Below, piece after piece: positions 11,576-57,804 of a stretch of 64,000 bases of DNA. Where the stretch lies: IMG/VR virus record IMGVR_UViG_3300025704_002294, positions 30,201 through 94,200 of that record, one strand, 5' to 3'. This DNA is from a virus. A program made the position numbers and the translations under genes. The notes beneath the pieces were generated by a model that worked only from the letters and a program-made list of their open reading frames with translations, had not been told where the DNA came from and made no database searches. Position 1 is the stretch's first letter. Each line of letters starts with the position of its first letter.

Positions 11576-11595
11576 ACATTCAATAAATATGTACT

Positions 11596-13053
11596 ATGCA
11601 AATAGTACATCATCCTAATTGGTATAGAGATTTTTTAGAAGACATGGCCCGCAGAGGCCCAACACATCTTAGAGATGCCAGTCGACATTGTCCTATTGAC
11701 AATACCATTAATAGTTTTACACACTTCCTGGGAGATAAAAGTTTTATCAAACCTAGAGATCAGATTGATGAATCAAAAAGTTTCTTTTACATGATTAGTA
11801 TTGATTGCTGTGACGATGACAGTATTGCAGAACTAATTTACTATGGCAGAGAACTTGTAAATCAAAAATTAGTAAGACCTTACATTACACAAGAAGCAAT
11901 AGATGATTTAAATAACTTTCACAACTGCGGATTAATAATAGAAAATGCGGCTGAAGGGCATGCCAGTGATAAACTGTTTGACGCATTGCATATATTAGTT
12001 AGCCAAGTAGGTATACCATTTGAAAAAACTTATTACACAAATAGCACTCAAAATTTAAGAGAAATGTATGACAAATATTTACTTAATAAACCTTATGCTA
12101 CAATAGACAAAATTAAAATGTTTAATTGCGGCGGGTGGAATGAATTGGTATGTCAACAAATGCTCGATGACAATTATCAGATTGAAAAAGAGGAAGACAT
12201 GTGCGAGTTTAGAGCAGAAAATCTTATTGATTCTGATGAAATGTGGAGTTTATCTGTGGAATGCTCTAAGCCATTAGAACATATTAGAGAGGATGTTAAT
12301 AAACCGCATTTATTCTTGTATAAACATATGAATGCAAAACGTGGGTTTAGAACATTGTTTTTAGCATTACTTCACAAAGAACATTTACTTGACAATAATT
12401 TATACAGCACACCTGAAGAATGGAGAGGTACGCAAAGTAGTGCTGTAAAATATATTAATTCTATAACATGGGACAGAAATTGGGCAGAAGGTTTCGAAGA
12501 ATTGTACCCTACATTATTAAATGTTAGAGGCAAAATACCAACATACATTGATAGAGAACACAACCATTTAGACTTTGATCCTAACACAAATTTTAGTAGC
12601 GATAATTATATGTACTACAATGCTAGAAGAAACTGTGATATTGAAATTGTAGGCGAAAGTGAATTTGAAGGTTCTATATTTTTAACAGAAAAGTTTCTCA
12701 AAGCAATTATATTTAAACAACCTTTTATAATACTAGGCTCTACTGGCAGTTGGGAAAAGATTAAACAAATGGGTTATATATCATACGAGCCATATATTAA
12801 AGAATCTTATGATAAAAACGATGACGAACTACACCGTATGAATGAAATAATTCAAGAAATCAAACGATTAACAGACTTAAAACGCGATAAACAAGCATGG
12901 AAGGATTGGCTACAAGGTGTGAATAGAATTGCTGTACAAAATTATAATATCTATTTGAACAACCTAATACGTCGTGTAAGAATGAAAACACTAGATGATT
13001 ATGTAGCAGGCACAGGTGAATTAGGAATTCCTATACAAGAGTTAGGCGATTAA
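11596..13053 (+). CDS. GT10-like (TEK...PF motif) putative glycosyltransferase, paralog 1 of 4
   Basis: FLTEKFLKAIIFKQPFIILG...MGYISYEPYIKESYD; AATAAATA 6 nt before ATG. Confidence 0.5.
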   Translation: MQIVHHPNWYRDFLEDMARRGPTHLRDASRHCPIDNTINSFTHFLGDKSFIKPRDQIDESKSFFYMISIDCCDDDSIAELIYYGRELVNQKLVRPYITQEAIDDLNNFHNCGLIIENAAEGHASDKLFDALHILVSQVGIPFEKTYYTNSTQNLREMYDKYLLNKPYATIDKIKMFNCGGWNELVCQQMLDDNYQIEKEEDMCEFRAENLIDSDEMWSLSVECSKPLEHIREDVNKPHLFLYKHMNAKRGFRTLFLALLHKEHLLDNNLYSTPEEWRGTQSSAVKYINSITWDRNWAEGFEELYPTLLNVRGKIPTYIDREHNHLDFDPNTNFSSDNYMYYNARRNCDIEIVGESEFEGSIFLTEKFLKAIIFKQPFIILGSTGSWEKIKQMGYISYEPYIKESYDKNDDELHRMNEIIQEIKRLTDLKRDKQAWKDWLQGVNRIAVQNYNIYLNNLIRRVRMKTLDDYVAGTGELGIPIQELGD

Positions 13054-13067
13054 AGATAAATACATAT

Positions 13068-13223
13068 ATGCGTATAAAAGAGGTTGACATAAACATAGAT
13101 TCGTTCTATAATAGTATCAATGAAACAGTAGCAGGTGCTATTGGTGGCGTGGCAATGCCTCTATTCAAAGAACCAATAAAACGCAAGCCTACTAAGAAAA
13201 AGAAGAAAAAGAAAAATGCGTAG
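13068..13223 (+). CDS. 51-aa protein with poly-Lys tail (not in ORF track)
   Basis: MRIKEVDINIDSFYNSINETVAGAIGGVAMPLFKEPIKRKPTKKKKKKKNA; GATAAATA (13055-62) + 5 nt + ATG. Confidence 0.7.
   Translation: MRIKEVDINIDSFYNSINETVAGAIGGVAMPLFKEPIKRKPTKKKKKKKNA
13084..13112 (+). promoter_or_regulatory. sigma70-type promoter inside coding sequence
   Basis: TTGACA-17nt-TATAAT perfect consensus. Confidence 0.7.
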
Positions 13224-13834: not shown

Positions 13835-13875
13835 AAGTACTTCTTTGATAAATATAACTATTAGAAGGGACTACT

Positions 13876-15075: not shown

Positions 15076-15077
15076 TC

Positions 15078-16448: not shown

Positions 16449-16491
16449 CATACGTTTATCTGCAAAGTAAACAAAAAAGATAAATAGTTGT

Positions 16492-18240
16492 ATGGCAGAA
16501 AAAGAAATAATTATATCACGAATGCAACAACGCAGAGGTAATCGTATAGATTTACCTCAACCCTTACGAGCGGGGGAGATAGCATTAGCATCAGACAGCA
16601 AAGAAGTATTCATAGGCTTAGATCCTGAGATAGGAGTCACGGCTCAAAATGCAAATGTTGTTTCAGTTAATAATATAGCAGAAGGCTTTAATTATGCTAA
16701 TTCATATCTAAATAATAATTTTGTAAGACTTATCATGCCTAGTAAAAGATTCCCTACAGGAACTTTTAACGGTACTACAAATAACACAACTTTTATAGTC
16801 AGTAGCAGTAGCGGTCAAGCACACGGACAACCTGTATTTAATGCAAGTATAACAACAGGAAATATTAAAAACGTGTTTGATTCCAGTGCATTTGAATCAA
16901 CAGATTTTACAGGTGCTAAAAATGGAGTTGCATTAAGTACAAATGCCACAAGAACTGCGGCTAACTTGCTTAATAACGAATTTTTTGTATCTTCGCCAAC
17001 AAGTACAGGTCAAAACACTACCATAACATTCGGCAATAATCCAACTGGTACAGATGATATCACAATAAACTACTATAGTAATGTCGATATTATTAATGCT
17101 ATGTTTGACACAGGTGTTATAGGAACTACATCAACAACAGGATTTTATGAAGCAAAAAGTGTTGCTAGTTATAGACAATTTAATAATGCGTATATTAGAG
17201 CAGATTACGAAGTAGGCACAGCATTTATTGGTTTAGAAAATAAACACACAGAAGTTTTTGCAGAGTCAACAGTAGTTACTGCTAGTTTAAGCACTCTTAC
17301 AGATATAAAAATTACACCTGCAGGCCTTACTGAAAGAACAGTTTCTTTTCCATCAAATATTTCTAGTATTGCTAATGTTATTAATACGATCAACACAACT
17401 GCAAACGTAAATGCGTATGTTAAGGCTTACGATGTATCTGTTGGTGATAATGTATATTGGTATATATCATCAGATGACGAATTTGCAATTGATCATACAG
17501 TAGGGAGCGATGGAACTGCATTAGGTATAGCAAATATTTCATATACCAAAGCAAACAATTCTATTAAAGGCCAATTAGAAAACTGGATTCATGGCTCATT
17601 AAATGACCCTGCGTTTAACATGTTTGTAGCGGCGCAGGTTGGCAATAAATTTAATTCAGGTGCAACTAGAATTAGTAAGTATACACCATCGACTAGCAGT
17701 GAAAATTTGACATTAACTTTTACAGGTAATCAAGAAGCAGAAAACTTTTCAACAATAACAAATAAAATTTTTGGTGCCAGTGCAAATTCTGATATTACTG
17801 GACTAACAAATGTAAAAACAAACCAAAGACTATTAACACAAGACGACTATGCTGTTCTATTAACAGGTTCCGCTAATTCATTATTCGAAGCAATACCAAA
17901 AACATGTCTAAAAGGTGCAACAACCGATATTGCATCGTTCCAAATTTCAGATGTCGATAGTGCCATTATAGAATATTCAGTAAGAGCATCCGGTGGTTCT
18001 GGTAATGCGTATACTAGAACTGGAACAGTACACATGACAGGCAGTAGTGTACTTGCAGACGCAACACTTAATGACACTGGTGCTGTGATGCAAAACGGTT
18101 TTGGCTCAACTACATTTGATTTAAGTGCAGTATGGGACGGCTTATCAAATACAATGATATTAAGAGCAACAAATAATTTATCAGATGGAACAACAAGACC
18201 AGCCACATTTAAATATCTAGTTAGAAAATGGTTGGGATAA
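16492..18240 (+). CDS. virion structural/tail protein with Mtd N-terminal-like domain
   Basis: QQRRGN..LPQPLRAGEIALASD..VFIG N-terminus; Thr/Ser/Asn-rich; GATAAATA (16479-86) + 5 nt + ATG. Confidence 0.65.
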   Translation: MAEKEIIISRMQQRRGNRIDLPQPLRAGEIALASDSKEVFIGLDPEIGVTAQNANVVSVNNIAEGFNYANSYLNNNFVRLIMPSKRFPTGTFNGTTNNTTFIVSSSSGQAHGQPVFNASITTGNIKNVFDSSAFESTDFTGAKNGVALSTNATRTAANLLNNEFFVSSPTSTGQNTTITFGNNPTGTDDITINYYSNVDIINAMFDTGVIGTTSTTGFYEAKSVASYRQFNNAYIRADYEVGTAFIGLENKHTEVFAESTVVTASLSTLTDIKITPAGLTERTVSFPSNISSIANVINTINTTANVNAYVKAYDVSVGDNVYWYISSDDEFAIDHTVGSDGTALGIANISYTKANNSIKGQLENWIHGSLNDPAFNMFVAAQVGNKFNSGATRISKYTPSTSSENLTLTFTGNQEAENFSTITNKIFGASANSDITGLTNVKTNQRLLTQDDYAVLLTGSANSLFEAIPKTCLKGATTDIASFQISDVDSAIIEYSVRASGGSGNAYTRTGTVHMTGSSVLADATLNDTGAVMQNGFGSTTFDLSAVWDGLSNTMILRATNNLSDGTTRPATFKYLVRKWLG

Positions 18241-22041: not shown

Positions 22042-22068
22042 TATAAATATTCACACACAGAGGAACAC

Positions 22069-22365: not shown

Positions 22366-22943
22366 ATAGTAGACAAATCCAAACGGTGTTCAGCAATCAA
22401 AGATTGTTTTTCATCTTCACTTAGTTCTGTTCTACCGGGATTGTTTGGAAATACACAACAAGGTTGCACATTGTAAAAACTGTTATTTTCTTCGCACCAT
22501 TCTCTTCTATAGAACTTGTCAGTACCGTATTTGTCCCATTCGATATGAAGTTTTTTAGCAGGGTCTTGTATTACTGTTATCATATCTTTACCAACTTGCA
22601 CATTAGTATCTCTCTGTAAGCGATCTAAATATCTACCTTCAAATAAACCATAGGCAGGAAATGCCTCAGTATATTCAGGGTGGTCATTATGCCATTGTTC
22701 CATTTCCTGTGGACCAGCCGTTAAAGGCTGATATACACTGAATCTATCTGAATAATTATCACTAATCCATTTCTTTTCATTTTCCCATGGGTCTCCTACA
22801 TCATATTTGCCCATATTAGCAACTTCGTTGCCGTCGGTAATCTTAAGTATGTTGTCGCCGCCGTTATATGACTTGTACATAATATTGTCTATTTTGCAAT
22901 AAACAAAACCTTCTGCTTGATTGTGGGTCCATTCTAGTTTCAT
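22362..22943 (-). CDS. hypothetical protein (start corrected to MKLEWTHN)
   Basis: AATAAATA-CATGT-ATG on minus strand; longer track ORF is antisense to the PAAR gene. Confidence 0.65.
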   Translation of the reverse strand: MKLEWTHNQAEGFVYCKIDNIMYKSYNGGDNILKITDGNEVANMGKYDVGDPWENEKKWISDNYSDRFSVYQPLTAGPQEMEQWHNDHPEYTEAFPAYGLFEGRYLDRLQRDTNVQVGKDMITVIQDPAKKLHIEWDKYGTDKFYRREWCEENNSFYNVQPCCVFPNNPGRTELSEDEKQSLIAEHRLDLSTI

Positions 22944-22974
22944 ACATGTATTTATTATGATAAATAATATTACT

Positions 22975-25993: not shown

Positions 25994-26024
25994 AAAAAGT
26001 AGGCTGGGAACAGCCTATTTTTTT
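25994..26024 (+). terminator. intrinsic terminator
   Basis: GTAGGCTG-GGAA-CAGCCTATTTTTTT. Confidence 0.85.
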
Positions 26025-26047
26025 GACTGTACAAAATAAATACTACT

Positions 26048-26524
26048 GTGGAAACAACCAATATATCATTTGAAACTATTTGTCACGTATGGCAGAAACA
26101 TTTATGGCAAAATAGAGTAAGTCCAATTGAAACCCATAGTGCTATGACTTGGCCATATGATGGAAATCCACTAGAATTTGACATGGATATTTTTGACTAT
26201 GAGCCTTCATTTTTTGGTGTAATTACAAATGGTAGAGTTGTTGGTGTAAACAGCGGCCACAGAACAAAAGACAATATTTATAGAAGCAGGGGAATTTGGG
26301 TTGACCATGATGTTAGAAAAAAAGGTGTTGCTCAATTACTATTTAATGCTACAGAAAAACAAGCAATCAAAGAAGGTTGTAATATGATATGGAGCATACC
26401 TCGTAAAAGTGCCTTACCGGCATATACTAAATTTGGCTTTGAAACTATAGGTAACTTTTTTGATGAAGGCATGGAGTTTGGGCCTAACATTTATGTGACT
26501 AAGGTGTTAAATGTATCCAACTAA
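26048..26524 (+). CDS. GNAT acetyltransferase
   Basis: GIWVDHDVRKKGVA motif A, AYTKFGF; AATAAATA + 5 nt + GTG. Confidence 0.85.
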   Translation: METTNISFETICHVWQKHLWQNRVSPIETHSAMTWPYDGNPLEFDMDIFDYEPSFFGVITNGRVVGVNSGHRTKDNIYRSRGIWVDHDVRKKGVAQLLFNATEKQAIKEGCNMIWSIPRKSALPAYTKFGFETIGNFFDEGMEFGPNIYVTKVLNVSN

Positions 26525-28618: not shown

Positions 28619-28659
28619 TTTATATAAATAAATGCGACTCACAAATAACAGGAACACAA

Positions 28660-29739: not shown

Positions 29740-30554
29740 AAAAAATAAGTGTACTATTAGCAACAAGACAAAGAACAGAAATGCTTGATAAAAGCATTGA
29801 CAGTTTATTAAAAAATGTAAGCAATACAGATAATGTTGAAATTATGTTAGGTATTGACAATGATGATCACGAAACATTAGATTTTGTACAGTCAGATGAC
29901 TTTCAAAATAAAATGCAAGATGAATATAACGTTGATGTACAAGCAGTAGTATTTGATAGACTAGGTTATAAAAATTTACATCAATATATGAATCAACTTT
30001 GGGGTAAAGCAAATGGCGAATGGCTAATGCTGTGGAACGATGATGCTATTATGGAAAGCAAAGATTGGGATTTAGAAATAGGCAAATTTGATGAAGAATT
30101 TGCATTACTTAAATTTAATCAAACAAATCATGACCACCCATACGCATTGTTTCCTGTAATACCCACAGACTGGTGCAGACTTATTGGTACCTTTAGTATG
30201 AATTCACAAAACGATGCTTGGCTTAATTTAATTGCTAAACCATTAGGTATTATTAAAGATATTCCTGTAGATGTATTACATGATAGATTTGATCTTACTG
30301 GTAATAATGACGATGAAATATTTAGAAGCAGAGAATATGCTGAAGGAAATCCGCAAGATCCAAATGATTTAATGAGCGAAAATAATATCAGAATGAGAGA
30401 TGCAATTATACACAAGATTGCATGGTATTGTAACCGTATAGGGCAAACAGAAACTAGCGATTACTTCGATAAAGTAAAAGCAGGGGATTTAGATCCTTTT
30501 GAAGATTGGAAAAAAGTTAGGGAAAGTGCAGTAGGATTAGGCTCTGGTTTATAA
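29736..30554 (+). CDS. GT2-like glycosyltransferase
   Basis: ISVLLATR, IDNDD, MLWNDD. Confidence 0.75.
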   Translation: MKKISVLLATRQRTEMLDKSIDSLLKNVSNTDNVEIMLGIDNDDHETLDFVQSDDFQNKMQDEYNVDVQAVVFDRLGYKNLHQYMNQLWGKANGEWLMLWNDDAIMESKDWDLEIGKFDEEFALLKFNQTNHDHPYALFPVIPTDWCRLIGTFSMNSQNDAWLNLIAKPLGIIKDIPVDVLHDRFDLTGNNDDEIFRSREYAEGNPQDPNDLMSENNIRMRDAIIHKIAWYCNRIGQTETSDYFDKVKAGDLDPFEDWKKVRESAVGLGSGL

Positions 30555-30562
30555 ATAGTAGC

Positions 30563-30766
30563 ATGGCAAAGAAAGATAAAAGACGAACAATAGTATACCT
30601 AATACCGGAAGGCGAAACAAGGGATCACCACACATATCATTATACCGCAGTGAAAACAAAAGCACTGGTAATTGAAAATAGAAAATTAAAACTTAAAAAA
30701 TTTAATCCTGTTAAGCAAAAACACGAGTATTTTGTAGAAGCAAAACTACCACCACATAGCAAATAA
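30563..30766 (+). CDS. rpmG: ribosomal protein bL33 (Zn-free type)
   Basis: RTIVYLI...HYTAVKTK...KLKLKKFNPVKQKHEYFVEAK; TATAAATA + 5 nt + ATG. Confidence 0.75.
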   Translation: MAKKDKRRTIVYLIPEGETRDHHTYHYTAVKTKALVIENRKLKLKKFNPVKQKHEYFVEAKLPPHSK

Positions 30767-30770
30767 ATAG

Positions 30771-30799
30771 TTGACATATACTATAAATAGTAGTATAAT
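30771..30799 (+). promoter_or_regulatory. sigma70 promoter with nested late box
   Basis: TTGACA-17-TATAAT; TATAAATA at 30782-89 within the spacer. Confidence 0.85.
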
Positions 30800-30808
30800 A
30801 AGGGCACT

Positions 30809-34770: not shown

Positions 34771-34790
34771 AAAAAAAGATAAATACTACT

Positions 34791-36704
34791 ATGGACCGTT
34801 CAAATATCATAGTAGTATACCCAGGTAGATTCCAACCTTTTCACAAAGGACACAAATCAGTGTTCGAACATCTTAAAAAAGACTGGGCAAATGTGTATAT
34901 TGCTACCACAAACAAAGTGCAACCAGGTAAATCACCATTTAACTTTCAAGATAAATTAAATTTTATGCAACTGCTAGGCATCGACAGTAATGAAGTACTA
35001 GAAGTAAAAAATACATACAATGGACAAGAATATATAGACCAATTTGGCAAGAAATTTACTGCTAGTGATACAGGATTGATCATGGTTGTTAGCGAAAAAG
35101 ATATGGTAGATGACCCAAGATTTAACTTTCCTAACATGGGTGTATCACTTAAAAAAGACGGCAATCCTGCATATTTACAAAAATTTACACACGAAGATGA
35201 CATGAAAAGCATGGCTGAGCATGGTTATATTATGACTGCTCCTATCTTTCCATTTAAAATAGCAGGACACGATTTAGATAGTGCTAGTCAAATTAGAGAA
35301 CTAATGAAAGGTGATGAAGAACTAGCAAAACAGGTTTTTGTGGACTTATATGATAAATACAACGAAGACTTATTTAAACTTATACGAGAGAAACTTATGA
35401 TAACTGAACAAGAAATATTAGATTTAAACTATATGCGTAAAATGGCAGGTTTAAACGAAATAGATGTCGAGGACGACGACTATGCAGATGCACCAGGATA
35501 CAAGGAAATGCCTATGTTTGACCAATTAGGAAAAATCATAGACAGTGACGAGATGTCCAAAGATGGCGATGACATAAAAAATCCTAAATCAACTGTGAAA
35601 ACAGATGACGGTTCAGAAGTTGAAGTAAGTGTAGGCGAAGCAAAAGCAGTTAGAAAAATGTTAAACATGCTGGGCTCTAATAGAGGAGCAGATGCAAAAT
35701 CACCTAGAGAAAAGTTTCAAGATGCAATTCAAAAAGAAGAAGGTTTAACAAATATGATTGAATTTGCTAATTCAAAAGGATTAGTAGAAGAAAGTGACGT
35801 AGTAGACAGTGAGGAATACGCATTAGAAGATTTAGACTTAAATGATATCAGATATGACTATGGTGTTAAGCCAGTATCAGAAGGTGGCAATGCATTTGAT
35901 ATAGCAATGACAGATTCAGAAGATATTATTATGACATGCCAAGATCAAGAAGAATGTTTAAAAGAGTTAGAAGCATTAATAGTAGATAATGCAGATGAGT
36001 GGGATAGCAAATATGCAAACGAAGTAGTGCAAGACTACATCACATTGGTAGTTGATAAAGGTATTGAAGGTGCCAAAGAATATGTAGAGCAACAAGATAA
36101 AGAACCAGAAGGTGCACCATTAGAAAGTAAAGGTTCAAAGCCTGACTACATTGATATAGACGGCGATGGCGACAAAGAAGAGCCAATGAAAAAAGCAGTC
36201 AAAGATAAAAACAAGAAAGACGAAAGTTTTGACGCAAGTGCAGAACAAAGTCGTGAAGAAGAAGCATACGAAGAATTAATGAATGCCCTACAAAGTGGTG
36301 GTGAAGAAGCATACGCAGAAGCATGTGGTTTATCAATGGAAGAACTTGATCAGGAAATGGGCGAGATTTCCAGAGACTTAAACTTACACATGGATGATGA
36401 CAGAGATGAAATTATTCAAAGACATGCTGAAGATACTGTAGATAGTGCAGATTGGAAAGACCATGGCGAACCTGAAGTAGACGAAGATATTCAAAGAATG
36501 CGAGACCTAGCAGGATTAGGTGAAATGTTAGGTAAGGATGGTAAAAAGCCAGGAGTACCTTATAGCAAATCTACTCAAAAAGATTTAGATGACAGAATAG
36601 CAGTCGCAACTCCTCCTAAAGGCGATACTGGCGAAGCAGATGCAGAAGAAGGTGAAACAGCACGTTTCTTAAGACATATGAAAAATATAAAGAAAGCAAA
36701 GTAA
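34791..36704 (+). CDS. HxGH nucleotidyltransferase domain fused to acidic head-cargo-type modules
   Basis: YPGRFQPFHKGH...SASQIR; two RxxAGL motifs; DIDGDGD EF-hand-like; GATAAATA + 5 nt + ATG. Confidence 0.75.
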   Translation: MDRSNIIVVYPGRFQPFHKGHKSVFEHLKKDWANVYIATTNKVQPGKSPFNFQDKLNFMQLLGIDSNEVLEVKNTYNGQEYIDQFGKKFTASDTGLIMVVSEKDMVDDPRFNFPNMGVSLKKDGNPAYLQKFTHEDDMKSMAEHGYIMTAPIFPFKIAGHDLDSASQIRELMKGDEELAKQVFVDLYDKYNEDLFKLIREKLMITEQEILDLNYMRKMAGLNEIDVEDDDYADAPGYKEMPMFDQLGKIIDSDEMSKDGDDIKNPKSTVKTDDGSEVEVSVGEAKAVRKMLNMLGSNRGADAKSPREKFQDAIQKEEGLTNMIEFANSKGLVEESDVVDSEEYALEDLDLNDIRYDYGVKPVSEGGNAFDIAMTDSEDIIMTCQDQEECLKELEALIVDNADEWDSKYANEVVQDYITLVVDKGIEGAKEYVEQQDKEPEGAPLESKGSKPDYIDIDGDGDKEEPMKKAVKDKNKKDESFDASAEQSREEEAYEELMNALQSGGEEAYAEACGLSMEELDQEMGEISRDLNLHMDDDRDEIIQRHAEDTVDSADWKDHGEPEVDEDIQRMRDLAGLGEMLGKDGKKPGVPYSKSTQKDLDDRIAVATPPKGDTGEADAEEGETARFLRHMKNIKKAK

Positions 36705-37113: not shown

Positions 37114-37154
37114 AAACTCCATAAATATCCATAGTAAACAAGATAAATATTACT

Positions 37155-37808
37155 ATGGCGGCTACAAAACAAGAGCAATATATTGATAAGATATCCAGAG
37201 ACGGTGCAATAGAATTTGTAGGGTCAGAAAGTCGACTTGATTTTGATTTAATGGGTAAAGATCATTTTGAATATCTATTATATCACGGACTAAACCCTAA
37301 TCATGTATTATTTGATGTTGGTTGTGGTGCACTGAGAACAGGGCAGTTTGTTATTCCATATTTAGATTCAACTAATTACTTTGGATTAGATCGAATGCCA
37401 GAACTAATTGAATACGGTTTAAATGAAGTATTAACACCCGAAACTGTGTTTGATAAAACTCCTAGATTTTCTGTAAATAGCGAGTTTAATTGTGCATTTG
37501 TAGACAAACCAGTTGATTATGCATGGTGTCAAAGTTTGATGTCACATCTAAGTGTAGCAGATATAAAGCATTGCTTAAACAATGTTAAAGACACATTATC
37601 GCCTGATGGTAAAATTTACTTTACTTACTTCCAGTTAGAAGGGTTAGAAGAAAATCAAGCAAATCAACAAGCAACTCATTCCAAAGAAGATTTATTCTAC
37701 AGCGAACAACATATGGATAATATTGTTGCAAGTTGTGGATTAAAGAAAATATTTAACGGTCCAATTGGCCATCCAAGAGGTCAATGGATGTACATTAGCA
37801 AGGTATAA
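37155..37808 (+). CDS. class I SAM methyltransferase
   Basis: LFDVGCGALR, QSLMSH, LSPDG; leaderless context. Confidence 0.85.
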   Translation: MAATKQEQYIDKISRDGAIEFVGSESRLDFDLMGKDHFEYLLYHGLNPNHVLFDVGCGALRTGQFVIPYLDSTNYFGLDRMPELIEYGLNEVLTPETVFDKTPRFSVNSEFNCAFVDKPVDYAWCQSLMSHLSVADIKHCLNNVKDTLSPDGKIYFTYFQLEGLEENQANQQATHSKEDLFYSEQHMDNIVASCGLKKIFNGPIGHPRGQWMYISKV

Positions 37809-37816
37809 ATAAAATT

Positions 37817-38044
37817 ATGAAAGTTGAAATATATAGCAAACCACAATGTCCTTATTGCGTTCAAGCAAAAGCATTAGCAGAAAGAGAAGGTCACAAACTA
37901 ACATATAAAATGTTAGATGAGGACTTTAATAGAGAACAGTTAATGGAAACATTTCCTGGTGCTAGGACATTCCCACAAATTATAGTAGACGGTAATAAGA
38001 TTGGCGGTTTTACAGAGTATAAGGCATTAGTAGACGCAAGTTAA
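37817..38044 (+). CDS. glutaredoxin
   Basis: CPYC, TFPQI, IGGF; TATAAATA + 5 nt + ATG. Confidence 0.95.
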   Translation: MKVEIYSKPQCPYCVQAKALAEREGHKLTYKMLDEDFNREQLMETFPGARTFPQIIVDGNKIGGFTEYKALVDAS

Positions 38045-39735: not shown

Positions 39736-42117
39736 CTACCAGGCGCGGCAACTCCAGTACCTTGCTTTAGTACGAGGACCCGGATTATCACAGTTGTGTC
39801 TTGCTCTAAAACTCTTGCGTCTTGCTGGATTAGACTTTTTAATTTTCATAGTCTTTTGCCCGGCTTTTTTAGCACTAGTACCACCATGTCCAAAGTTTAC
39901 CTTTTTCACATTTCCTGTTTTAGGATCTTTTACATAAACTTTAAACTTCTTAACATCGCCTCTAGTTGGTTTGCCCAACTTAACTTTACGTCCTTGATAT
40001 TCTGCTTCATTCTTAACTAATTTAAGTTCAGGCTTTTTATATCCTTTAAGGTAATAATCTACTTCCTTATCTGATAGTCTTGGAAAATAGTTTCTAAACT
40101 CTGTTTCTAAATCAACATCTTTACCATAACTGTTTATTATTTGCATAATAACTTCTTTGGCAGATGCATCTGTGATTTCATTGAGTTGATCTAAGCCTGC
40201 TAATTTTTTTAATTCTGCTAATTGTCTAGCACCTTCGACAACAATGTCTTCTGCTAGTTCGTCCCAACCAATTAATATGTTTTCGTTTACAACATGTAAC
40301 ACAGGTACAACAATACCTTCGCCATCTGCTGTTTCAATCATTAACTCGTCGCCTGCTTGTATGCTTTCTTCCTTTTTCCTCTTTTTAGGCTTATCGTGTT
40401 TGTCGACAGTATCAGTTCCAAATGTATCTTCAATTCTGCCTTCGTTCTTTTTACAAGAACCTTTTTCGCCTGCTTTTTTACCTGGGACTTTGCTGTAACC
40501 TGTCCAGCACTTTTTATATATTTTGCTATTACCATGCTGTTCGCCTTCAGCAATACCAAGTTCGTGTTTGGCATTTTTTACATAATTACTAAAACGTAAA
40601 CTTGCTCTATTTTTTTTTGTTTCTCCATGTGACTGTTCCCATTCCCAGTATGTGGGCCAATCTAATGGCCTATTATCCATTGTTACTGGCAACATATAGT
40701 CACTAGTGGTTTCTATTTCTTTCCATTTATTTTCGTTCATGTTCTCTCCCATACTAGCATGTTTGGCCGCCATGTGATTTTTGTATTTTGCTGAGCCTTT
40801 CTTATGTGGGGATTTGCCTTCTAAATACTTGTCAAGATATTTTTCTTGTTGTTTTGTTCCTAATTCTTTAAAATCCTCTTCTGTTTTACCAGGATTCAAC
40901 TTTTTAAAATCATCTACTGCTTTTTTATACCCTGAATTTGATCGTTGTAAAAATGGCACTTGATCTTCAGTGGTTAAACCTGCTTTCTTCATTCCTTTGG
41001 CAACTAAACTGGCTCTTTGTGCTCTGCCCAAATTTGGATATTCCTGATTAACATACTGTAATGTATCTCTAGGATCTTGCCCACTTGACTTTAATTGCTT
41101 GGCTGTACTAGCCGCAAAGTCTATAACTGCTTCGTCGCCCGGATAGTTATCTTTTGCTTGTTGTCTTTGTGCTTGACGTTCATCATGGTCTTTAATTGCC
41201 TTCCAACTTACTGTGTCGCCATCATAAGTTAATTCACCATCGTCACAACCATAATTACCAAATCCATAACAATCTTCATTATCCTCTACATTAGGACATT
41301 CTGGACAATGGCCGTCTTTAACATACTCTGCTTCGACACTATTTGATTGTGCTAACGCATCCTGTAATTGATCGTATGCTTCTTGTCTTTCTTCAGCATC
41401 GTAATAACCATCAGGTTCGCCTATCATGTTATTTGTATAACCACCTCTTGCTGGATTATAATCAGGTGCACCCATCATCTTTTGTTCGATTTCGTTTAAA
41501 TCGTTTGTCATATCTATCTCTTCATTTGCGTGGTCGTGTCCTGGACACTCGCAATCTTTTTCCATTCTGCCACAGTCTACACATTTGTTAAGTCCTTTAG
41601 CCTTATTAATAGGATCTGCATTTACATAAGGTAAATGTCCTTTAGCCTTATTAATAGGAGCCATCTGTCTCATATGTCTATCCCACGGATCTTCCTCTGC
41701 TTCTTCTATGTTTTCTGGATCTGCTTTTTTGACTGTATATTTGACTTTTGGACTTCTTTGTTGTAATTCTTCTGCCGCCTTTTTGGCATCTGATAAACTA
41801 CTATACCTAGCAGTAACATCCTTGCCATCAGCAAAAATACCATAAATTGCATCACTTGGTGCTTTCTCTTCGATGTTATCATCATCCATACCTACATAAC
41901 GCCAGTTCCAAGCACCTGCGCCTATGTAACCATCTTGTACATAGCCTGCCATGTGCATAGCATCATCGCTCTTTATACCCTTCTTATCAGCCCATTGACC
42001 AATGTACCAGGTACGGGTTTTAGCATCTACATCAGCAAACTTCCTGACTATTTCAGGGTTTGCCTTGGGATTGTCTGATGCGTAGTTTATTGCTTCTAGT
42101 AATGATTGTAAATTCAT
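39736..42117 (-). CDS. 793-aa modular putative head-internal polyprotein
   Basis: Short modules separated by xxE; Cys clusters; LKKLAGL; C-terminal KKVNFG...RKSFRARHNC...RYWSC; GATAAATA + 5 nt + ATG. Confidence 0.7.
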   Translation of the reverse strand: MNLQSLLEAINYASDNPKANPEIVRKFADVDAKTRTWYIGQWADKKGIKSDDAMHMAGYVQDGYIGAGAWNWRYVGMDDDNIEEKAPSDAIYGIFADGKDVTARYSSLSDAKKAAEELQQRSPKVKYTVKKADPENIEEAEEDPWDRHMRQMAPINKAKGHLPYVNADPINKAKGLNKCVDCGRMEKDCECPGHDHANEEIDMTNDLNEIEQKMMGAPDYNPARGGYTNNMIGEPDGYYDAEERQEAYDQLQDALAQSNSVEAEYVKDGHCPECPNVEDNEDCYGFGNYGCDDGELTYDGDTVSWKAIKDHDERQAQRQQAKDNYPGDEAVIDFAASTAKQLKSSGQDPRDTLQYVNQEYPNLGRAQRASLVAKGMKKAGLTTEDQVPFLQRSNSGYKKAVDDFKKLNPGKTEEDFKELGTKQQEKYLDKYLEGKSPHKKGSAKYKNHMAAKHASMGENMNENKWKEIETTSDYMLPVTMDNRPLDWPTYWEWEQSHGETKKNRASLRFSNYVKNAKHELGIAEGEQHGNSKIYKKCWTGYSKVPGKKAGEKGSCKKNEGRIEDTFGTDTVDKHDKPKKRKKEESIQAGDELMIETADGEGIVVPVLHVVNENILIGWDELAEDIVVEGARQLAELKKLAGLDQLNEITDASAKEVIMQIINSYGKDVDLETEFRNYFPRLSDKEVDYYLKGYKKPELKLVKNEAEYQGRKVKLGKPTRGDVKKFKVYVKDPKTGNVKKVNFGHGGTSAKKAGQKTMKIKKSNPARRKSFRARHNCDNPGPRTKARYWSCRAW
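41592..41659. repeat. 23-bp direct repeat x2 (period 45)
   Basis: GTCCTTTAGCCTTATTAATAGGA at 41592 and 41637; encodes PINKAKG twice on the minus strand. Confidence 0.9.
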
Positions 42118-42164
42118 ACTAGTATTTATCAGAACTTATTCGTCTGAAGGAGTTTTCCAAATAC

Positions 42165-42659
42165 TTATATATCATCTTTTAGCCACATAGCAAGAGAGTA
42201 TCTTTCACCCGATGTTAGCATTTTAACACCGTGTACAGAATCTATATTTGAAAAAATTACAGCATCGCCTTTATTCATTGGAATTACTTCGTTGTTGTAA
42301 ACAAAATCCCCACCAGTATAAGAGGAATTTAATTGTATAATAATTGTTTTTTCTGTTGGATCTACATGGGGGACGCAAAACTCTCCTTCTTGATATCTAA
42401 TCACATACATCCTATTGTCCATTGCAGATACTTGCTTTTCTAACAACTTGCTAATTTTTGATAGGATTGTATGAGATACATTAAGTTCAATTCTTGTGGG
42501 TAATAATTCTAACCTATACCAAGTGTCTAACGGTACTTCCTCGTTTTCTCTATCTATTGCTGGTGCTGTATTGATATCTAATAATGGCAACTTACCAATA
42601 AAGTTATCGCATTCTATTGGGGAAAGAAAATTTTTGATAAATTTATACTGAGTAGGCAT
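42165..42659 (-). CDS. prolyl-4-hydroxylase-like 2OG-Fe(II) oxygenase
   Basis: NFLSPIEC, PHVD, YTGG, HGV, RYSL; TATAAATA + 5 nt + ATG. Confidence 0.8.
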   Translation of the reverse strand: MPTQYKFIKNFLSPIECDNFIGKLPLLDINTAPAIDRENEEVPLDTWYRLELLPTRIELNVSHTILSKISKLLEKQVSAMDNRMYVIRYQEGEFCVPHVDPTEKTIIIQLNSSYTGGDFVYNNEVIPMNKGDAVIFSNIDSVHGVKMLTSGERYSLAMWLKDDI

Positions 42660-42678
42660 AAATTTATTTATAGATATT

Positions 42679-42885
42679 TTATTGTTCTGAAGGAGTTTTC
42701 CAAACTATCTCAATGCCGCGTCTAACAAGTTCATTGCTACACTTCTGTTTGATTTTAGGCTTCTGTCCTTTGTTTAGATAATCTATTAATTCCTGTTTAG
42801 GAGTATTTTTGATGTAAAAGTGTTCTATGTTAGTACCTTTACCTTTGATGAATGTTTTTTGTGATGGTTTAAATTTTATCGGCAT
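42679..42885 (-). CDS. small basic protein
   Basis: SD GGGAG; HFYIKNTPK...KCSNELVRRG. Confidence 0.65.
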   Translation of the reverse strand: MPIKFKPSQKTFIKGKGTNIEHFYIKNTPKQELIDYLNKGQKPKIKQKCSNELVRRGIEIVWKTPSEQ

Positions 42886-43343: not shown

Positions 43344-44107
43344 TAACTAATTTCGTTCCTAGGATCAACCTTACCTACCGCGGCTGTATTGTTACGATGA
43401 TTTGCTCTAGTAATAGGACTGTTAATAGGATTCTTGCTTACTTTTGTATTAATAGGTGCTCTTCTTTTAAATGCTGGTTCATCATACTTACTGAAATCTT
43501 GTTTAGGCTTATTAAGTTCTTTTTCTGCTCTTGCTTTGTTTTGAGCATTTTGGAATTCAGTTTGATACTTAACTAAATTTTGATTAACTGCGTCATAAGT
43601 TTTGCTACCATGCATCTGCACCATATACTTTCTAAATTCTTCGTGATTAAATACTGTTCGTGCCGCATTTGCAAGATCTCTTTGTATTTGCATATCGGCT
43701 TTAGTAGATTGTCTAGCAGGTTTTTTAGTAGTTGCCATTTGGTCTTTATTCATATACATTCCGCCCATTTTGTCTGGTGCTTCGCCTACCATTTTACCAC
43801 GCATTTTATTAGGGGATTCATGTCCAGTAGTTGGTTTTACTTTCATAGTGTTTTTATCACTAGTCTTTGCATACTTCTTACTTGCATATTTTTCTTTTAA
43901 TTTGTTTAATATTGGATCGTTATTTTCCACTTCGTCTTCTCCTAACTTTGATAAGTCTATACTTAAAGGACCTTTTGGCTTTTTAAAATTTTTATGTTTT
44001 TTACCTGAGACAATTTTCTCAATCTTTTTTGCTTTTCTAACGCGAGGCATTTCGCCACCGTTATTATTGAGTCCTTGTAATCCGTTTAGTGCCTCATCTA
44101 TCTTCAT
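43343..44107 (-). CDS. basic putative head-internal protein (start corrected to MKIDEAL)
   Basis: GATAAATA (44113-20)-CATGT-ATG; LGE/VGE junctions. Confidence 0.65.
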   Translation of the reverse strand: MKIDEALNGLQGLNNNGGEMPRVRKAKKIEKIVSGKKHKNFKKPKGPLSIDLSKLGEDEVENNDPILNKLKEKYASKKYAKTSDKNTMKVKPTTGHESPNKMRGKMVGEAPDKMGGMYMNKDQMATTKKPARQSTKADMQIQRDLANAARTVFNHEEFRKYMVQMHGSKTYDAVNQNLVKYQTEFQNAQNKARAEKELNKPKQDFSKYDEPAFKRRAPINTKVSKNPINSPITRANHRNNTAAVGKVDPRNEIS

Positions 44108-44141
44108 ACATGTATTTATCTCAGAGATAGAAATTTTGGCC

Positions 44142-44171
44142 AAAAAAATCCCCCTAAAATAAGGGGGATTT
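44142..44171 (-). terminator. intrinsic terminator
   Basis: AAATCCCCCT/AGGGGGATTT stem with T-run on the minus strand. Confidence 0.8.
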
Positions 44172-47017: not shown

Positions 47018-47128
47018 TATTTTTTCTCCACTTATATTTTTAACCGGTTATAGTATATGTGTGTATGTTTGATAAAAGTATTTATCGTAAATCAAAGAAT
47101 AGTGACAGGTTACTTATTAAATACACAC

Positions 47129-48184
47129 ATGTCACTAATGTCATTACTACCTAGTACGCAAAAAAATAAGATTATGCAGTTCTATGATCGTATGAACCTA
47201 ATAGATGTGTATGACTTACCTATACCAAAGCCACTAAAGCAAGGTGAGAACTTTGAAGCAATAGACTTAGATAAAATTTTAGAGTATTGTGTCAGTAACT
47301 CAATTGACCCAAGCAGGGTGGTTTTAGCAGAGCCAACATTAAACGGAATTAAAAATACACCCTTTTTACATGTACATTATCCGTTGCACCTCATAACACA
47401 TTATATTATTCACGAAATTCCTGATACTACACCAACTAAACATTTTAATTTCTTAGCAGGTAATTTTCATTATGATAGATTTATGCTACTGCAAGGTTTG
47501 TTTGAAAAAGATTTATTAAAAGATACGCATTGGTCAGCATACAGAACAATTAATACTGATATGCATAAGCAACATCATTTTACAAACGAGTTTATGCAAT
47601 ACTGTAAATTACAAATACCACGCACAATGATACAACTTGATGTGCATAATTCTTACCCAGAAGAAATACCAGAATCTAGTAGGTTTACTGGCGGCTTTCA
47701 TTTAAATGATCGTAACAATCTGGACGGAATTATTTTTAAAGATAGTGCAGTCACAATTACTGTAGATTCAATGGCAAACACAGTACCTGGTGTTTACGAA
47801 AAAGACTGGCATGATGTAGAACAAAAGGTAGGTGCTACTATGTTCTATACTGCAAAAATAATCAAACCTATAAAACACAAAAGACCATTCATACACTTAA
47901 TAGGTAAAGGTAAAGGGGTAGATAAGTATCTCACAGACATGGGTTTTAAAACATTTAATAGCATGTGGAATGAAGATTACTATAATGCAAATACACCAAA
48001 AGAAAGAGTTGACCTAGCAGTTGAATTATGCTATAATTTATCTAAATTAGAAGTAACCGAGATACATGATAAAACTAAAGAAATTTGCGAACATAATTAC
48101 AATGTACTCACAAAAACGGATTGGGTAGAATGGTATCTGAATCAAATACAGACAACTTTACATATACGGCAGGCGACTACATAA
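47129..48184 (+). CDS. GT10-like putative glycosyltransferase, paralog 2 of 4
   Basis: FYTAKIIKPIKHKRPFI...MGFKTFNSMWNEDY...ICEHNY; ATTAAATA + 5 nt + ATG. Confidence 0.5.
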   Translation: MSLMSLLPSTQKNKIMQFYDRMNLIDVYDLPIPKPLKQGENFEAIDLDKILEYCVSNSIDPSRVVLAEPTLNGIKNTPFLHVHYPLHLITHYIIHEIPDTTPTKHFNFLAGNFHYDRFMLLQGLFEKDLLKDTHWSAYRTINTDMHKQHHFTNEFMQYCKLQIPRTMIQLDVHNSYPEEIPESSRFTGGFHLNDRNNLDGIIFKDSAVTITVDSMANTVPGVYEKDWHDVEQKVGATMFYTAKIIKPIKHKRPFIHLIGKGKGVDKYLTDMGFKTFNSMWNEDYYNANTPKERVDLAVELCYNLSKLEVTEIHDKTKEICEHNYNVLTKTDWVEWYLNQIQTTLHIRQATT

Positions 48185-51537: not shown

Positions 51538-51541
51538 ATAG

Positions 51542-51570
51542 TTGACACATTCACACAAATTTGTTATAAT
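51542..51570 (+). promoter_or_regulatory. sigma70 promoter preceded by late box
   Basis: TTGACA-17-TATAAT with TGn; TATAAATA at 51533-40. Confidence 0.85.
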
Positions 51571-52715: not shown

Positions 52716-52739
52716 AGTAAAACTATTTGAGGCATATAG

Positions 52740-54724: not shown

Positions 54725-56171
54725 CTATATTTTGTTCGTCAATTCTATCAATTATAATTCGCATCGGATCTACTAATCTGCTAGATACCCAATATGTGTC
54801 ATGTATCATATTAAAATTATGTACAAGCGAATCTTTGATTTCTTCAATGCTATGCTCTTCTGATAGAAATTTTTCGAAGGAATCAAACATGGCTTGTATT
54901 CGTAAATTAAAATTCTCTAGGTCATCATAACTTTCATCAAACCACTCTGGAAATGTTTTAAAACCTAAATCTCTTATACGTTGCAGGCCATGTTGGTTGC
55001 CTACAAATAGAAAAGGCATTCCCCACGCCATTGCTTTAAATGTTTTTTCTGTTAAAAATCTTACCGGGTGTGGAGGTGTATGCTCAATGATCAAATCTCT
55101 TGCTTGACTTTCTGTAATTATGTTTACTTTGCATTTTTGTGGCCATTTTAAATTAAATTTCCTGTCGTGGCGAATAGGTATATTGTTTCCTGATATGTTA
55201 TCATGCGGTTCAAATTCTGCTTGTTTTGGTAACATATTAATAATTTTACTATCTAATTCATGATCCTCTCCAGGTGTTACCATGCCCATTGGTTCTGCGC
55301 CACAACTCCATATCATGTTATCTAGCAATCCGCGTTTTTCTGCTTCTATAATAGTTGTTAGTCTGTGTTGCTTTGGCATCCTATTTAAAAGCAATGCATC
55401 ATATTCCTTGTCATCATGCCAAACACTATCCATAACTTTTTCTATATCAAATGGCTGATCGTCCATTGCTTCTTCCCAATCCATCATATCCATATTTCTG
55501 GAAGACTTTATACCACATGTATTGTTTACATCGAATAAAAAATATTCAAATGGCACAACTTCGAAATCTACGCCTTGTGACTGTAAAAAATGTGTATAAT
55601 CCTTGTCTGAATTAGATTTTATATAAAATCGTTTATGTTTACATTCTCCTGCAGGTCTAAGATGTCGTTTACAATTTTCTACAAAGTATTCCCATACTTC
55701 AACGTTATCATCACTTCCTGTTTGCGGTTTAGTATCTTTTTGAGGACCACATTCCCAAATATCACTCACCATAGCACTAAATTCTGGATGATTAAAAAAT
55801 TTACTAAAAATTGCACCTTGCAAACTAAATGCCGCTTTCTCCGAAATAGATATAACAACACGCCAATCTTGAATAGGTTCAAACCTTTTTACTAAATCTA
55901 CCCAAAACGGACTTTCAACATTGATTGCTTCGTTAATATCAATTGATACTGGATATATAAAATGATCTGATGTCAAATTAACGGAAATTTCTCTTCGTAA
56001 ACGTTTAGACCTGTGTAATACCCACCTAATATAATCATGTTTATTAACATAATTAAGTGTGTTATAGTCTTTATCATGTATAGAATCTGAGATAAAGGCT
56101 TTTGCTATTTTTTTCTGTACTGTATTATAATCGGTAGGATTTACAGTTGCGTTAACGAAAATTGTTCTCAT
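54717..56171 (-). CDS. GT10-like putative glycosyltransferase, paralog 4 of 4
   Basis: LLLNR...HR; FLTEKTFKAMAWGMPFLFVG...LGFKTFPEWFDESYD. Confidence 0.55.
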   Translation of the reverse strand: MRTIFVNATVNPTDYNTVQKKIAKAFISDSIHDKDYNTLNYVNKHDYIRWVLHRSKRLRREISVNLTSDHFIYPVSIDINEAINVESPFWVDLVKRFEPIQDWRVVISISEKAAFSLQGAIFSKFFNHPEFSAMVSDIWECGPQKDTKPQTGSDDNVEVWEYFVENCKRHLRPAGECKHKRFYIKSNSDKDYTHFLQSQGVDFEVVPFEYFLFDVNNTCGIKSSRNMDMMDWEEAMDDQPFDIEKVMDSVWHDDKEYDALLLNRMPKQHRLTTIIEAEKRGLLDNMIWSCGAEPMGMVTPGEDHELDSKIINMLPKQAEFEPHDNISGNNIPIRHDRKFNLKWPQKCKVNIITESQARDLIIEHTPPHPVRFLTEKTFKAMAWGMPFLFVGNQHGLQRIRDLGFKTFPEWFDESYDDLENFNLRIQAMFDSFEKFLSEEHSIEEIKDSLVHNFNMIHDTYWVSSRLVDPMRIIIDRIDEQNIDD

Positions 56172-56199
56172 ATGTGTATATTATCCGATAAATATGTAT

Positions 56200-57804
56200 A
56201 TGATATTTGGTATTCTAACATTAATAACTGCTCTGGCTATTGCCGGTGTTGCCGCATGGTTTTCCATAGTCGGCTTAATGCTACTATTTAGTGGTATGCC
56301 ACTGAGTATAGCCGTAATGGCTGGCACACTTGAAGTAGGTAAACTACTAACAGCAAGTTGGCTGTACAGATATTGGAACGAAACATCCTTAATGTTACGG
56401 GCCTACCTCACGACCGCAGTTGTCATACTAATGGTTATTACAAGTATAGGTATCTTTGGTTATCTCAGCAAAGCCGCTGGAGATCAAGCAAGTAACACAG
56501 GAGATGCTGTAGCAATAGTAGAACGTGTAGATGCTCAAATAGCCAGAGAAGAAAATAAAATTGTAATATTAGAAGACAGAATACAAAGCATCGGTGGTTC
56601 CATTGATGTTAGTTCTAGCATAACACAACAAGAAGAAATCAGAGATGGTGCTTGGATTAGAGTTCAAGGTGACATTGATTACAACCAAGAACAAATAACC
56701 ACAGTTAGAGAACAACTCACAGTAGATCTCTCTCAACAGGATAGTAGATTAGCAGAACTAGATAAAGCAGTAAATGATTTAAGAAGTAAAGGTATAGAAA
56801 TTATCACACTCGACGAAGGCGGAATATTCCAAGGTGCTGAAACAGAAAAGATAGATTATGTAGCACAGGCTAACGAACTGCGAAATAGCCAAACAGATGA
56901 AAGAGATGAAATCAGAGATGAGAAGATTAGACTAAGAGATCAAGCAAGTAAAGACATTAAAGTTTTCCAAGATGCAATTGACAATTACAGGGCACAGGCG
57001 CAAGACACTATTAAAGGTGCTAATGATGAAATTAACAGATTGCGTGGCCAGAGTTCATCGCAGGCAGATGATAACTTAATAAAGATAGATACTTTTAACA
57101 GCGACATTGACGCCATTTACAGTAACATAGTAGCACTTAAAGACGAGAAATTTGACGCAGAACAAAAAGTTAGGACACTAGATAGAGAAGTAGGACCAAT
57201 TAAATACTTGGCACAATTAATATATGGTAATGACGAACGTGATGTGTTAGACCAGGCAATACGTTTATTCATTCTACTATTAGTATTTGTATTTGATCCA
57301 CTAGCAGTTATGCTAGTTATTGCCGCTAACCAAACATTATTACGTCATGGTATTAACTTAGAAAGCAGTGGTCCTCCACTACCACCAAAAGATCCAGACC
57401 CAGAACCGGAAGAAAGTGTGGAAGAATTTGAAATCGATGAAGCAACAGGCAGAGAAGTAGTAGAGGAAATATCAGACGAAGATTACAAACCACTGCCAAG
57501 TGCTGTTGATGATGCCGCTGATGTGATGAGTGATTACAATGGTAGAGATAAAACTTTCTTTGAAAGTATCAATGAGCCAATTGTTAATATTGACAATCAA
57601 AAAACAGCAGACATTGTAAATCAAATTGAGAAAACAGAAAAACTAGAAGACGACCTAAACAAAATATTAGGTGGCAAGACTAAATCGCAACTTTTACAAA
57701 TGGCACTAGATGGTGGTGTTGAAATACCTGCTCAATTTTCTAAAGCAGAAATTGTTGCCAACGTTATTGCTAACTACGACAGTATCACCAAAAAAAAAAT
57801 TTAA
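56200..57804 (+). CDS. membrane protein with long coiled coil
   Basis: N-terminal TM helices, coiled coil, GPIKYLA...FVFDPLAV TM; GATAAATA (56187-94) + 5 nt + ATG; ends in A10 run. Confidence 0.8.
   Translation: MIFGILTLITALAIAGVAAWFSIVGLMLLFSGMPLSIAVMAGTLEVGKLLTASWLYRYWNETSLMLRAYLTTAVVILMVITSIGIFGYLSKAAGDQASNTGDAVAIVERVDAQIAREENKIVILEDRIQSIGGSIDVSSSITQQEEIRDGAWIRVQGDIDYNQEQITTVREQLTVDLSQQDSRLAELDKAVNDLRSKGIEIITLDEGGIFQGAETEKIDYVAQANELRNSQTDERDEIRDEKIRLRDQASKDIKVFQDAIDNYRAQAQDTIKGANDEINRLRGQSSSQADDNLIKIDTFNSDIDAIYSNIVALKDEKFDAEQKVRTLDREVGPIKYLAQLIYGNDERDVLDQAIRLFILLLVFVFDPLAVMLVIAANQTLLRHGINLESSGPPLPPKDPDPEPEESVEEFEIDEATGREVVEEISDEDYKPLPSAVDDAADVMSDYNGRDKTFFESINEPIVNIDNQKTADIVNQIEKTEKLEDDLNKILGGKTKSQLLQMALDGGVEIPAQFSKAEIVANVIANYDSITKKKI

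Follow-up and report, generated by a model that had tools for sequence, protein, structure and literature searches.

For 50 years bacteriophage T4 has been the textbook model of gp55-type late transcription, and its late transcripts carry leaders. The T4 late box TATAAATA, whose first T is numbered -13, is read by gp55 together with gp33 and the gp45 clamp (PMC2988020). The heptamer ATAAATA has also been proposed as the late promoter of the jumbo phages CBB and GAP32, which encode gp55-like sigma factors and in whose clade the CBB authors detected no gp33 or gp45 homologs (PMC5259590), while Pseudomonas phage PA5oct relies on the host RNA polymerase (PMC7318152); neither of the latter two papers mentions leaderless transcripts. 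For the Thermus phages phiYS40 and Lalka27a, a preprint states that most transcripts are leaderless (bioRxiv 10.64898/2026.04.20.719267, citing YS40 work), and for the jumbo phages phiKZ and AR9 no leaderless transcripts, or only long untranslated regions, were found. Here we describe a stretch of 64,000 nucleotides (nt), called the window below, which comprises bases 30201-94200 of the 94.2-kb IMG/VR contig IMGVR_UViG_3300025704_002294 (G000) and in which the box ATAAATA stands again and again exactly 5 nt ahead of a start codon (N5). This layout probably reflects a gp55-type, T4-like late or non-early promoter box that has been fused to the start codon and gives rise to leaderless mRNAs. Phage-wide leaderless programmes (in the Thermus phages) and gp55-type boxes in the clade of PA5oct and the Rak2-like phages are known already; the systematic fusion is new relative to the literature searched, in which we found no description of a gp55-type box joined systematically to the start codon, and we add to it a comparison with PA5oct, an avoidance of antisense boxes and the terminator contexts of individual sites.

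The spacing is the most conspicuous feature of the element. Across the contig, 16 of the 51 ATAAATA boxes (31%) lie exactly 5 nt ahead of the start of an open reading frame (ORF), where ATG or GTG codons opening at least 50 codons, i.e. ORFs of at least 50 amino acids (aa), were counted as starts; under the same definition no box is found at a spacing of 4 nt and two at 6 nt. The original prediction had proposed to compare the distances between box and start, in the genome and its relatives, with those in shuffled sequence, and this comparison returned a sharp peak at 5 nt, as 200 dinucleotide shuffles placed on average 0.145 boxes at this distance and never more than 2. Likewise, ATAAATA is the commonest heptamer at positions -12 to -6 of candidate starts, with 16 occurrences and only 4 for the runner-up. 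Overall, boxes are no more numerous than expected (40 in the window vs 39.5 from the shuffles); it is their placement that is non-random, with 34 of 51 residing in intergenic DNA or in the final 12 nt of a gene, which together make up 4.3% of the contig. If cases with a 6-nt spacer (N6) and one-letter variants are counted (CTAAATA ahead of the large terminase gene, TerL, and TTAAATA ahead of the gene starting at 47129), about 20 of the roughly 112 genes on the contig show the layout. All sites named in the original prediction were confirmed by inspection of the sequence; they are listed in Table 1, together with an additional in-frame site at 7419 that the prediction did not name, and site coordinates refer to the window unless marked as contig.

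At these approximately 20 sites, no Shine-Dalgarno (SD) word is present between box and start, and the box itself occupies -12 to -6, in line with the earlier claim that there is no room for an SD; the single SD-like word, at 37817, sits 5' of the box. In the 41 site contexts that can be compiled from G000 and its diverged relative G001 (130 kb), the start codon is ATG in 38 cases and GTG in three. Leaderless mRNAs in Escherichia coli strongly prefer AUG as 5'-terminal codon. ATAAATA is invariant in these contexts, G is the commonest base at -13 (20/41), and there is no -35 element, as all positions from -32 to -14 carry 0.7 bit or less. Because the T4 box extends from -13 to -6, a numbering assumed in the original prediction and confirmed by the literature (PMC2988020), a spacer of 5 nt would place +1 on the A of the ATG.

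The layout is conserved within the lineage. In G001, 25 of 71 boxes stand at 5 nt, and two further relatives, G002 and G003, contain 13 pattern matches in 62 kb and 10 in 38.5 kb, respectively. Among 13 pairs of G000/G001 orthologs, which share 38-96% aa identity, we counted 1 change in 91 box positions and none in 39 start-codon positions, while the 5-nt spacer changed at 13 of 65 positions (0.20), close to the 0.24 of the upstream flank, and no insertion or deletion was found between box and start. Since the spacer drifts near-neutrally but never changes its length, selection holds the distance and not the spacer sequence. Within the genes, the third codon position changes at a rate of 0.25, compared to 0.12-0.13 at positions 1 and 2, and this excess begins at codon 2, from which we conclude that the frame is coding from codon 2 onwards. 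The corrected gene starts that had been put forward for 22943(-), 44107(-) and 56200 could also be substantiated, as the orthologs align from residue 1.

The same box is also found at a distance from genes, and this provides insight into which bases belong to the promoter. Boxes located 19-63 nt ahead of SD-led genes have G-13, T-4, G-2, T-1 and A+1 in common with the leaderless set and carry no TG at +2/+3. As T-1/A+1 is kept there without the TG, the T/A step belongs to the promoter and not to the codon, i.e. the step six bases past the box is a feature of the element itself, like an initiating nucleotide. The idea that the whole ATG is part of the promoter consensus (a 'TATG' initiator) was ruled out by the same lack of TG at +2/+3. 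The contig further contains 16 near-consensus promoters of the type TTGACA-N16-18-TATAAT, mostly before replication and small genes, and nearly all of them are followed by a leader of 15-30 nt and an SD, which argues that the host uses sigma70-type promoters and SD-led initiation. The leaderless layout is a trait of the box class, with the exceptions of the primase gene and perhaps of 56171(-). In the primase gene (contig 22639-22675, outside the window), TTGACA-N16-TATAAT-aaactt-ATG is found, and +1 would fall on the ATG. At 56171(-), the predicted ATAATATA-N5-ATG is indeed present, but it resembles the box poorly, and a sigma70-like -10 element (TAATAT) at 6 nt from the start codon would explain it just as well.

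Several observations point to a signal in the DNA. Within genes, sense-strand boxes number 12, compared to 22.3 +/- 4.1 expected under a codon-permutation null, and antisense boxes only 5, compared to 25.3 +/- 4.9, a five-fold depletion that none of 100 permutations reached. This depletion was strongest for the box among eight A/T-rich words, and the seven others showed nothing comparable. Avoidance in the orientation that is not transcribed argues for a signal at the DNA level. When the 63 nt upstream of each site were folded, strong intrinsic terminators (about -16 kcal/mol and a T run) were found upstream of the boxes of 26048 and 44107(-), with 11 and about 21 nt, respectively, between terminator end and box, so that at these two SD-less genes only the box can drive expression. 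In addition, the divergent starts 56171(-)/56200(+) and 22943(-)/22975(+) are only 28 and 31 nt apart, and the gaps between them are filled by back-to-back boxes.

From our point of view, these features can be brought together as follows. ATAAATA, usually preceded by G, would be the -10-like box of a gp55-type late or non-early promoter class, which host RNA polymerase equipped with a phage gp55-like sigma factor would open and from which it would initiate on the A (rarely the G) of the start codon. The AUG would then very probably form the 5' end of the message, leaving no leader for ribosome binding, and the approximately 20 genes concerned, driven by more than half of the box promoters, would be transcribed as leaderless mRNAs. 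Direct binding of a 5'-terminal AUG is established knowledge on leaderless initiation, and ribosomes would in this way engage these messages without an SD. Read-through RNA would hold the same AUG internally and without an SD, which is why every such gene would need, and indeed has, its own box; the co-oriented consecutive genes 34791, 37155 and 37817 each carry one. As such, translation could be gated by initiation at that very promoter. In T4, only the late-promoter transcripts of gene e and I-TevI are translatable (PMC3014915), and we propose that translation in G000 is similarly tied to the promoter, by different means.

Some points weigh against this interpretation. The sites in G000 and G001 are orthologous and hence not independent of each other. 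No credible gp55-like match was obtained with the phrog_234 and phrog_12791 profiles in G000, G001, G002 and G003, all of which are fragments of 16-26% completeness. The leaderless set comprises TerL and homologs of virion proteins, and a tail gene carries a leadered box, but glutaredoxin, methyltransferase, GNAT and 2OG oxygenase genes and the promoter heading the ribonucleotide reductase (RNR) operon are leaderless as well; since several of these enzymes are early or middle in T4, the label 'late' may be wrong. As for the original prediction that a large share of genes is expressed from leaderless mRNAs, all sequence tests that were run agree with it, while 'late' is a reading of the box itself. 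At 30563 and 37817, where the box contains the stop codon of the preceding gene, termination-reinitiation on a polycistronic RNA could also operate. Lastly, the capacity of the host to translate leaderless mRNA is assumed.

With regard to the sigma factor, gp55-like proteins are encoded by complete relatives, namely PA5oct (E 5.6e-83) and the IMG/VR genomes G007 and G008, and synteny with PA5oct would place the sigma gene of the G000 lineage off the fragment. The sole sigma-profile match (E 0.005, inside a structural gene) was rejected, as the family also matches 8 of 14 control genomes. Two scans of IMG/VR, one with the PA5oct sigma factor and one with a 10-sequence profile, yielded 127 loci, none with a dense N5 layout; one contig from the same sample as G002 had a single match in 82 kb.

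Among the other explanations, the one that survives best, although we regard it as unlikely, is a promoter with offset initiation, in which transcription starts 1-4 nt upstream and leaves a very short leader, or starts within the ATG, in which case translation would begin at a start codon further downstream. The N6 variants at 11596 and contig 3941 and the one 8-nt spacing (N8) at 22975 would fit such a scheme, as would the fact that the distance from promoter to +1 can vary by a nucleotide, and the geometry is assumed, given that the sigma factor of the lineage is not seen on the fragments. However, the peak at 5 is sharp, leadered boxes favour T-1/A+1 at the same offset, and both the coding signature from codon 2 and the alignment of orthologs from residue 1 speak against this scheme; a leader of 1-3 nt would, moreover, still be functionally leaderless.

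It is even less likely that the box acts in the RNA, as a substitute for the SD or as an A/U-rich translation enhancer on polycistronic mRNA, and is not a promoter. The box does occupy the usual SD position, consecutive co-oriented genes have one box each, as a ribosome-binding site would require, and two of the boxes contain the upstream stop codon. In contrast, the same extended motif recurs 19-63 nt ahead of genes with a true SD, and its spacing is fixed, whereas that of an SD is normally flexible. A five-fold antisense avoidance would not be expected of an RNA signal, the terminators at two sites leave no upstream transcript that could carry the gene, and the motif is that of the T4, CBB and GAP32 late promoters.

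That box and start together form the operator of a translational repressor or another regulator, with the likeness to late promoters being secondary, seems very improbable to us. In T4, the RegA protein recognises A/U-rich sequences in the region of start codons (PMC3014915), and upstream of 16492 the conservation extends past the box, with a block from -31 to +3 that is identical in 16 related loci and 5' of which the sequence diverges. However, an operator reaching across the start would hardly be expected to have a near-neutral spacer, leadered copies are remote from start codons, and no RegA homolog was seen, although no search aimed at RegA was made. Chance or the composition of an A/T-rich genome, for which one could cite that the overall box count matches that of the shuffles, can practically be dismissed, as it is already refuted by the shuffles at 5 nt and by the conservation in diverged relatives, and as the layout is nearly absent from T4, GAP32 and PA5oct at similar G+C content.

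The preferred reading, a promoter box fused to the start codon, can be placed in the context of the lineage. The completeness of G000 is 26% according to CheckV, which implies that it is a piece of a jumbo phage with a full genome of roughly 350 kb; its G+C content is 35%. TerL is 57% identical to that of PA5oct (Arenbergviridae), the closest cultured relative, with Rak2-like jumbo phages ranking next, and 67% identical to that of G001. Synteny with PA5oct extends across the packaging, virion, UvsX, primase, DnaB and RNR region. A megablast search against isolated phages detected no similarity to G000 at the DNA level. A search for contigs beginning at the ATG of 16492 returned 17 metagenome contigs, all of them DNA sequences that extend further upstream. 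Since TARA Oceans scaffolds are among these matches, the lineage is marine, and a host search by means of the phage ClpX was uninformative, with matches of about 50% identity spread over many phyla.

With T4, G000 shares the box core, the lack of a -35 element, an A/T-rich downstream segment, the association with packaging and virion genes and the occurrence on both strands. It differs in that the distance of 5 nt to a long-ORF start is seen for only 1 of 65 boxes in T4, where a broad hump extends over about 21-29 nt, that -13 is mostly G in G000 and T in T4, and that sigma factor and co-activators were not found on G000, although no search aimed at the co-activators was made. PA5oct and the Rak2-like jumbo phages CBB and GAP32 belong to the same TerL clade, show synteny and have the same box before structural genes. 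In PA5oct and GAP32, however, boxes mostly precede leaders of 16-31 nt with an SD: of the 145 boxes of PA5oct, 5 stand at 5 nt and a broad hump extends from 16 to 31 nt, and the 359 kb of GAP32 contain 2 pattern matches. The pattern was matched 11 and 7 times in two complete IMG/VR relatives of 363 kb, and in the surroundings of gp55-like sigma genes (72 loci) a small but visible peak is present at 5 nt, with 18 of 218 boxes (8%).

Individual orthologs differ in the presence of a leader. Three leaderless genes (contig 6418, 46692 and 21783(-)) have orthologs in PA5oct that carry the same box followed by a leader of 19-25 nt and an SD, and the opposite case is provided by PA5oct gp262, a virion protein detected by mass spectrometry (MS), which is leaderless by the N5 rule while its G000 ortholog is leadered. 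The gp262 gene begins at NC_071039.1:144985 with ATAAATA-CGTGT-ATG and has leadered neighbours such as gp278. The promoter thus remained constant and the leader was gained or lost, and such switches in both directions represent a natural experiment on leader loss. The 16492 gene, head of an operon running into nrdA/nrdB, has a PA5oct homolog with box and leader, and the PA5oct homolog of the glutaredoxin gene has a sigma70-like promoter instead of the box. The two-tier design of the original prediction, in which presumably abundant structural genes would keep a leader with an SD, is a hypothesis; homologs of MS-detected PA5oct virion proteins are found among both leadered and leaderless genes.

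As in phiYS40 and Lalka27a, promoters in G000 lie directly before genes; unlike there, where 5' ends were mapped, the host is Thermus and other motifs are used (an extended -10; TAGGGT), G000 has a gp55-type box that coexists with SD-led early and late genes, and its leaderless messages are deduced from the DNA. The exact 5-nt spacing also recurs in HTVC008M, a marine myophage of Pelagibacter (SAR11), with similar spacers (GTAGC, GTAAT, GTATT). In this phage, 9 of 45 boxes stand at 5 nt before a long-ORF start and a gp55 homolog is encoded (E 3.5e-66), whereas it is a 147-kb T4-like member of the Kyanoviridae and not a PA5oct-like jumbo phage. To our knowledge, the layout of HTVC008M has been neither described nor mapped.

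We consider the chances about even that marine PA5oct-like giant phages and, independently, HTVC008M have turned more than half of their gp55-type promoters into fusions of promoter and start codon, with translation allowed solely by initiation at the promoter of the gene and read-through RNA being silent. If so, this would represent an unrecognised and widespread mode of late-gene control in ocean phages, and one could speculate that it evolved to suit the translation machinery of streamlined marine hosts. Should 5' ends map as predicted, a large group of environmental phages would couple late transcription of the gp55 type to translation without an SD, which would raise the question of how hosts or infected cells translate leaderless mRNA efficiently. 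It would further correct gene starts miscalled by ORF callers, at least four on this contig, and uncultured phage genomes could be searched for late genes and true N-termini by a simple sequence rule.

Table 1. Boxes, gene starts, terminators and a composite promoter in the window (window coordinates unless marked contig)
Feature	Coordinates	Start	Strand	Product or gene	Remarks
AATAAATA-N6-ATG	11582..11598	11596	+	485 aa	same layout in G001
GATAAATA-N5-ATG	13055..13070	13068	+	51 aa	conserved in G001
GATAAATA-GTTGT-ATG	16479..16494	16492	+	582 aa	N-terminus homologous to PA5oct structural protein gp243
AATAAATA-CATGT-ATG	22941..22956	22943	-	193 aa	back to back with + box 22960-22966
Box, 8-nt gap (N8), ATG	22960-22966	22975	+		
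Intrinsic terminator, hairpin and T7 run	25994..26024		+		dG -16.3 kcal/mol; 11 nt before 26048 box; conserved in G001
AATAAATA-CTACT-GTG	26035..26050	26048	+	GNAT acetyltransferase, 158 aa	GTG and box conserved in G001
TATAAATA-GTAGC-ATG	30550..30565	30563	+	67 aa, weakly bL33-like	stop codon of upstream gene inside box
GATAAATA-CTACT-ATG	34778..34793	34791	+	637 aa, cytidylyltransferase-like N-terminus	
GATAAATA-TTACT-ATG	37142..37157	37155	+	methyltransferase, 217 aa	
TATAAATA-AAATT-ATG	37804..37819	37817	+	glutaredoxin, 75 aa	upstream stop codon inside box
GATAAATA-CTAGT-ATG	42115..42130	42117	-	793 aa	
TATAAATA-AATTT-ATG	42657..42672	42659	-	2OG-Fe(II) oxygenase, 164 aa	
GATAAATA-CATGT-ATG	44105..44120	44107	-	254 aa	corrects ORF-list start TTG at 44143
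Intrinsic terminator, hairpin and T run	44142..44169		-		dG -16.2 kcal/mol; directly 5' of 44107 box
ATTAAATA-CACAC-ATG	47116..47131	47129 (candidate)	+		gene absent at this place in G001
ATAATATA-CACAT-ATG	56169..56184	56171	-	484 aa	weak variant, 100% conserved in G001
GATAAATA-TGTAT-ATG	56187..56202	56200	+	534 aa	divergent from 56171(-)
Second N6 variant	contig 3941				
Box, 43 nt ahead of SD-led ATG	656..662	706	+		
Box with leader ahead of SD-led ATG	1110..1116	1180	+		
Box, 22-nt gap, SD-led ATG	1519..1525	1548	+	homolog of PA5oct structural protein gp250	
Box, 21-nt gap, SD-led ATG	13848..13854	13876	+	399-aa virion protein, homolog of PA5oct gp247	
Box, 19-nt gap, SD-led ATG	22043..22049	22069	+		
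Box, 29-nt gap, SD-led ATG	28624..28630	28660	+		
Box, 61-nt gap, SD-led gene	47079..47085	47017	-	tail gene	
Consensus sigma70-type promoter TTGACA-N17-TATAAT with perfect TATAAATA box in spacer	30771..30799	30809	+		ahead of ATG 30809
ATAAATA-CTAAT-ATG, in-frame	7406..7421	7419	+	2354-aa gene (2484-9548)	residue 1646
GTAAATA-ATATT-ATG, in-frame	7862-7877	7875	+	2354-aa gene	residue 1798

The 67-aa product of 30563-30766 had been called a bL33 ribosomal protein in the original prediction, an assignment that is tentative, as the best Pfam match, Ribosomal_L33, is below threshold (E 0.005, 17.6 bits vs a cut-off of 25). By eye, its C-terminal half is bL33-like, and the protein is 96% identical in G001.

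The nrdA and nrdB genes directly follow the virion-protein homolog (16492-22041), with no separate promoter seen, and the order is the same in PA5oct, whose RNR subunits are annotated as MS-detected in virions.

The 2354-aa gene has an ortholog of 2222 aa in G001 with a single perfect site, which aligns with the residue-1798 site, and G000 contains, relative to G001, an additional module of about 150 aa that opens with its own box. The in-frame sites suggest either that an internal promoter gives rise to a nested C-terminal isoform or that they are left over from a gene fusion.

Around the tail gene, a segment of 139 nt (46950-47090) that covers gene start, leader and box is 100% identical in G000 and G001, though TerL is only 67% identical. 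Just past the 47079 box the homology ends abruptly, and G001 lacks the following gene (47057/47129-48184) at this place. The edge of identity suggests a recombination boundary or a mobile module.

The gene at 30809 encodes a gamma-glutamyl cyclotransferase-like protein, and the promoter-in-promoter arrangement ahead of it is conserved in G001; the elements in 30771-30811 look like overlapping early and late promoters. In both G000 and G001, ATAAATAG (30763-30776 and 51534-51547) lies immediately next to the TTGACA -35 element in two consensus sigma70 promoters. It may represent an UP-like element rather than a late box, and the predicted +1 base is a C.

Finally, the same 16-nt word GGAAAACTCCTTCAGA occurs at about -42 to -27 of two adjacent leaderless genes (42130-42175 and 42672-42715, minus strand). 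Both copies sit in the 3' ends of the upstream genes, and the copy before 42659, the one that was checked, is not conserved in G001.

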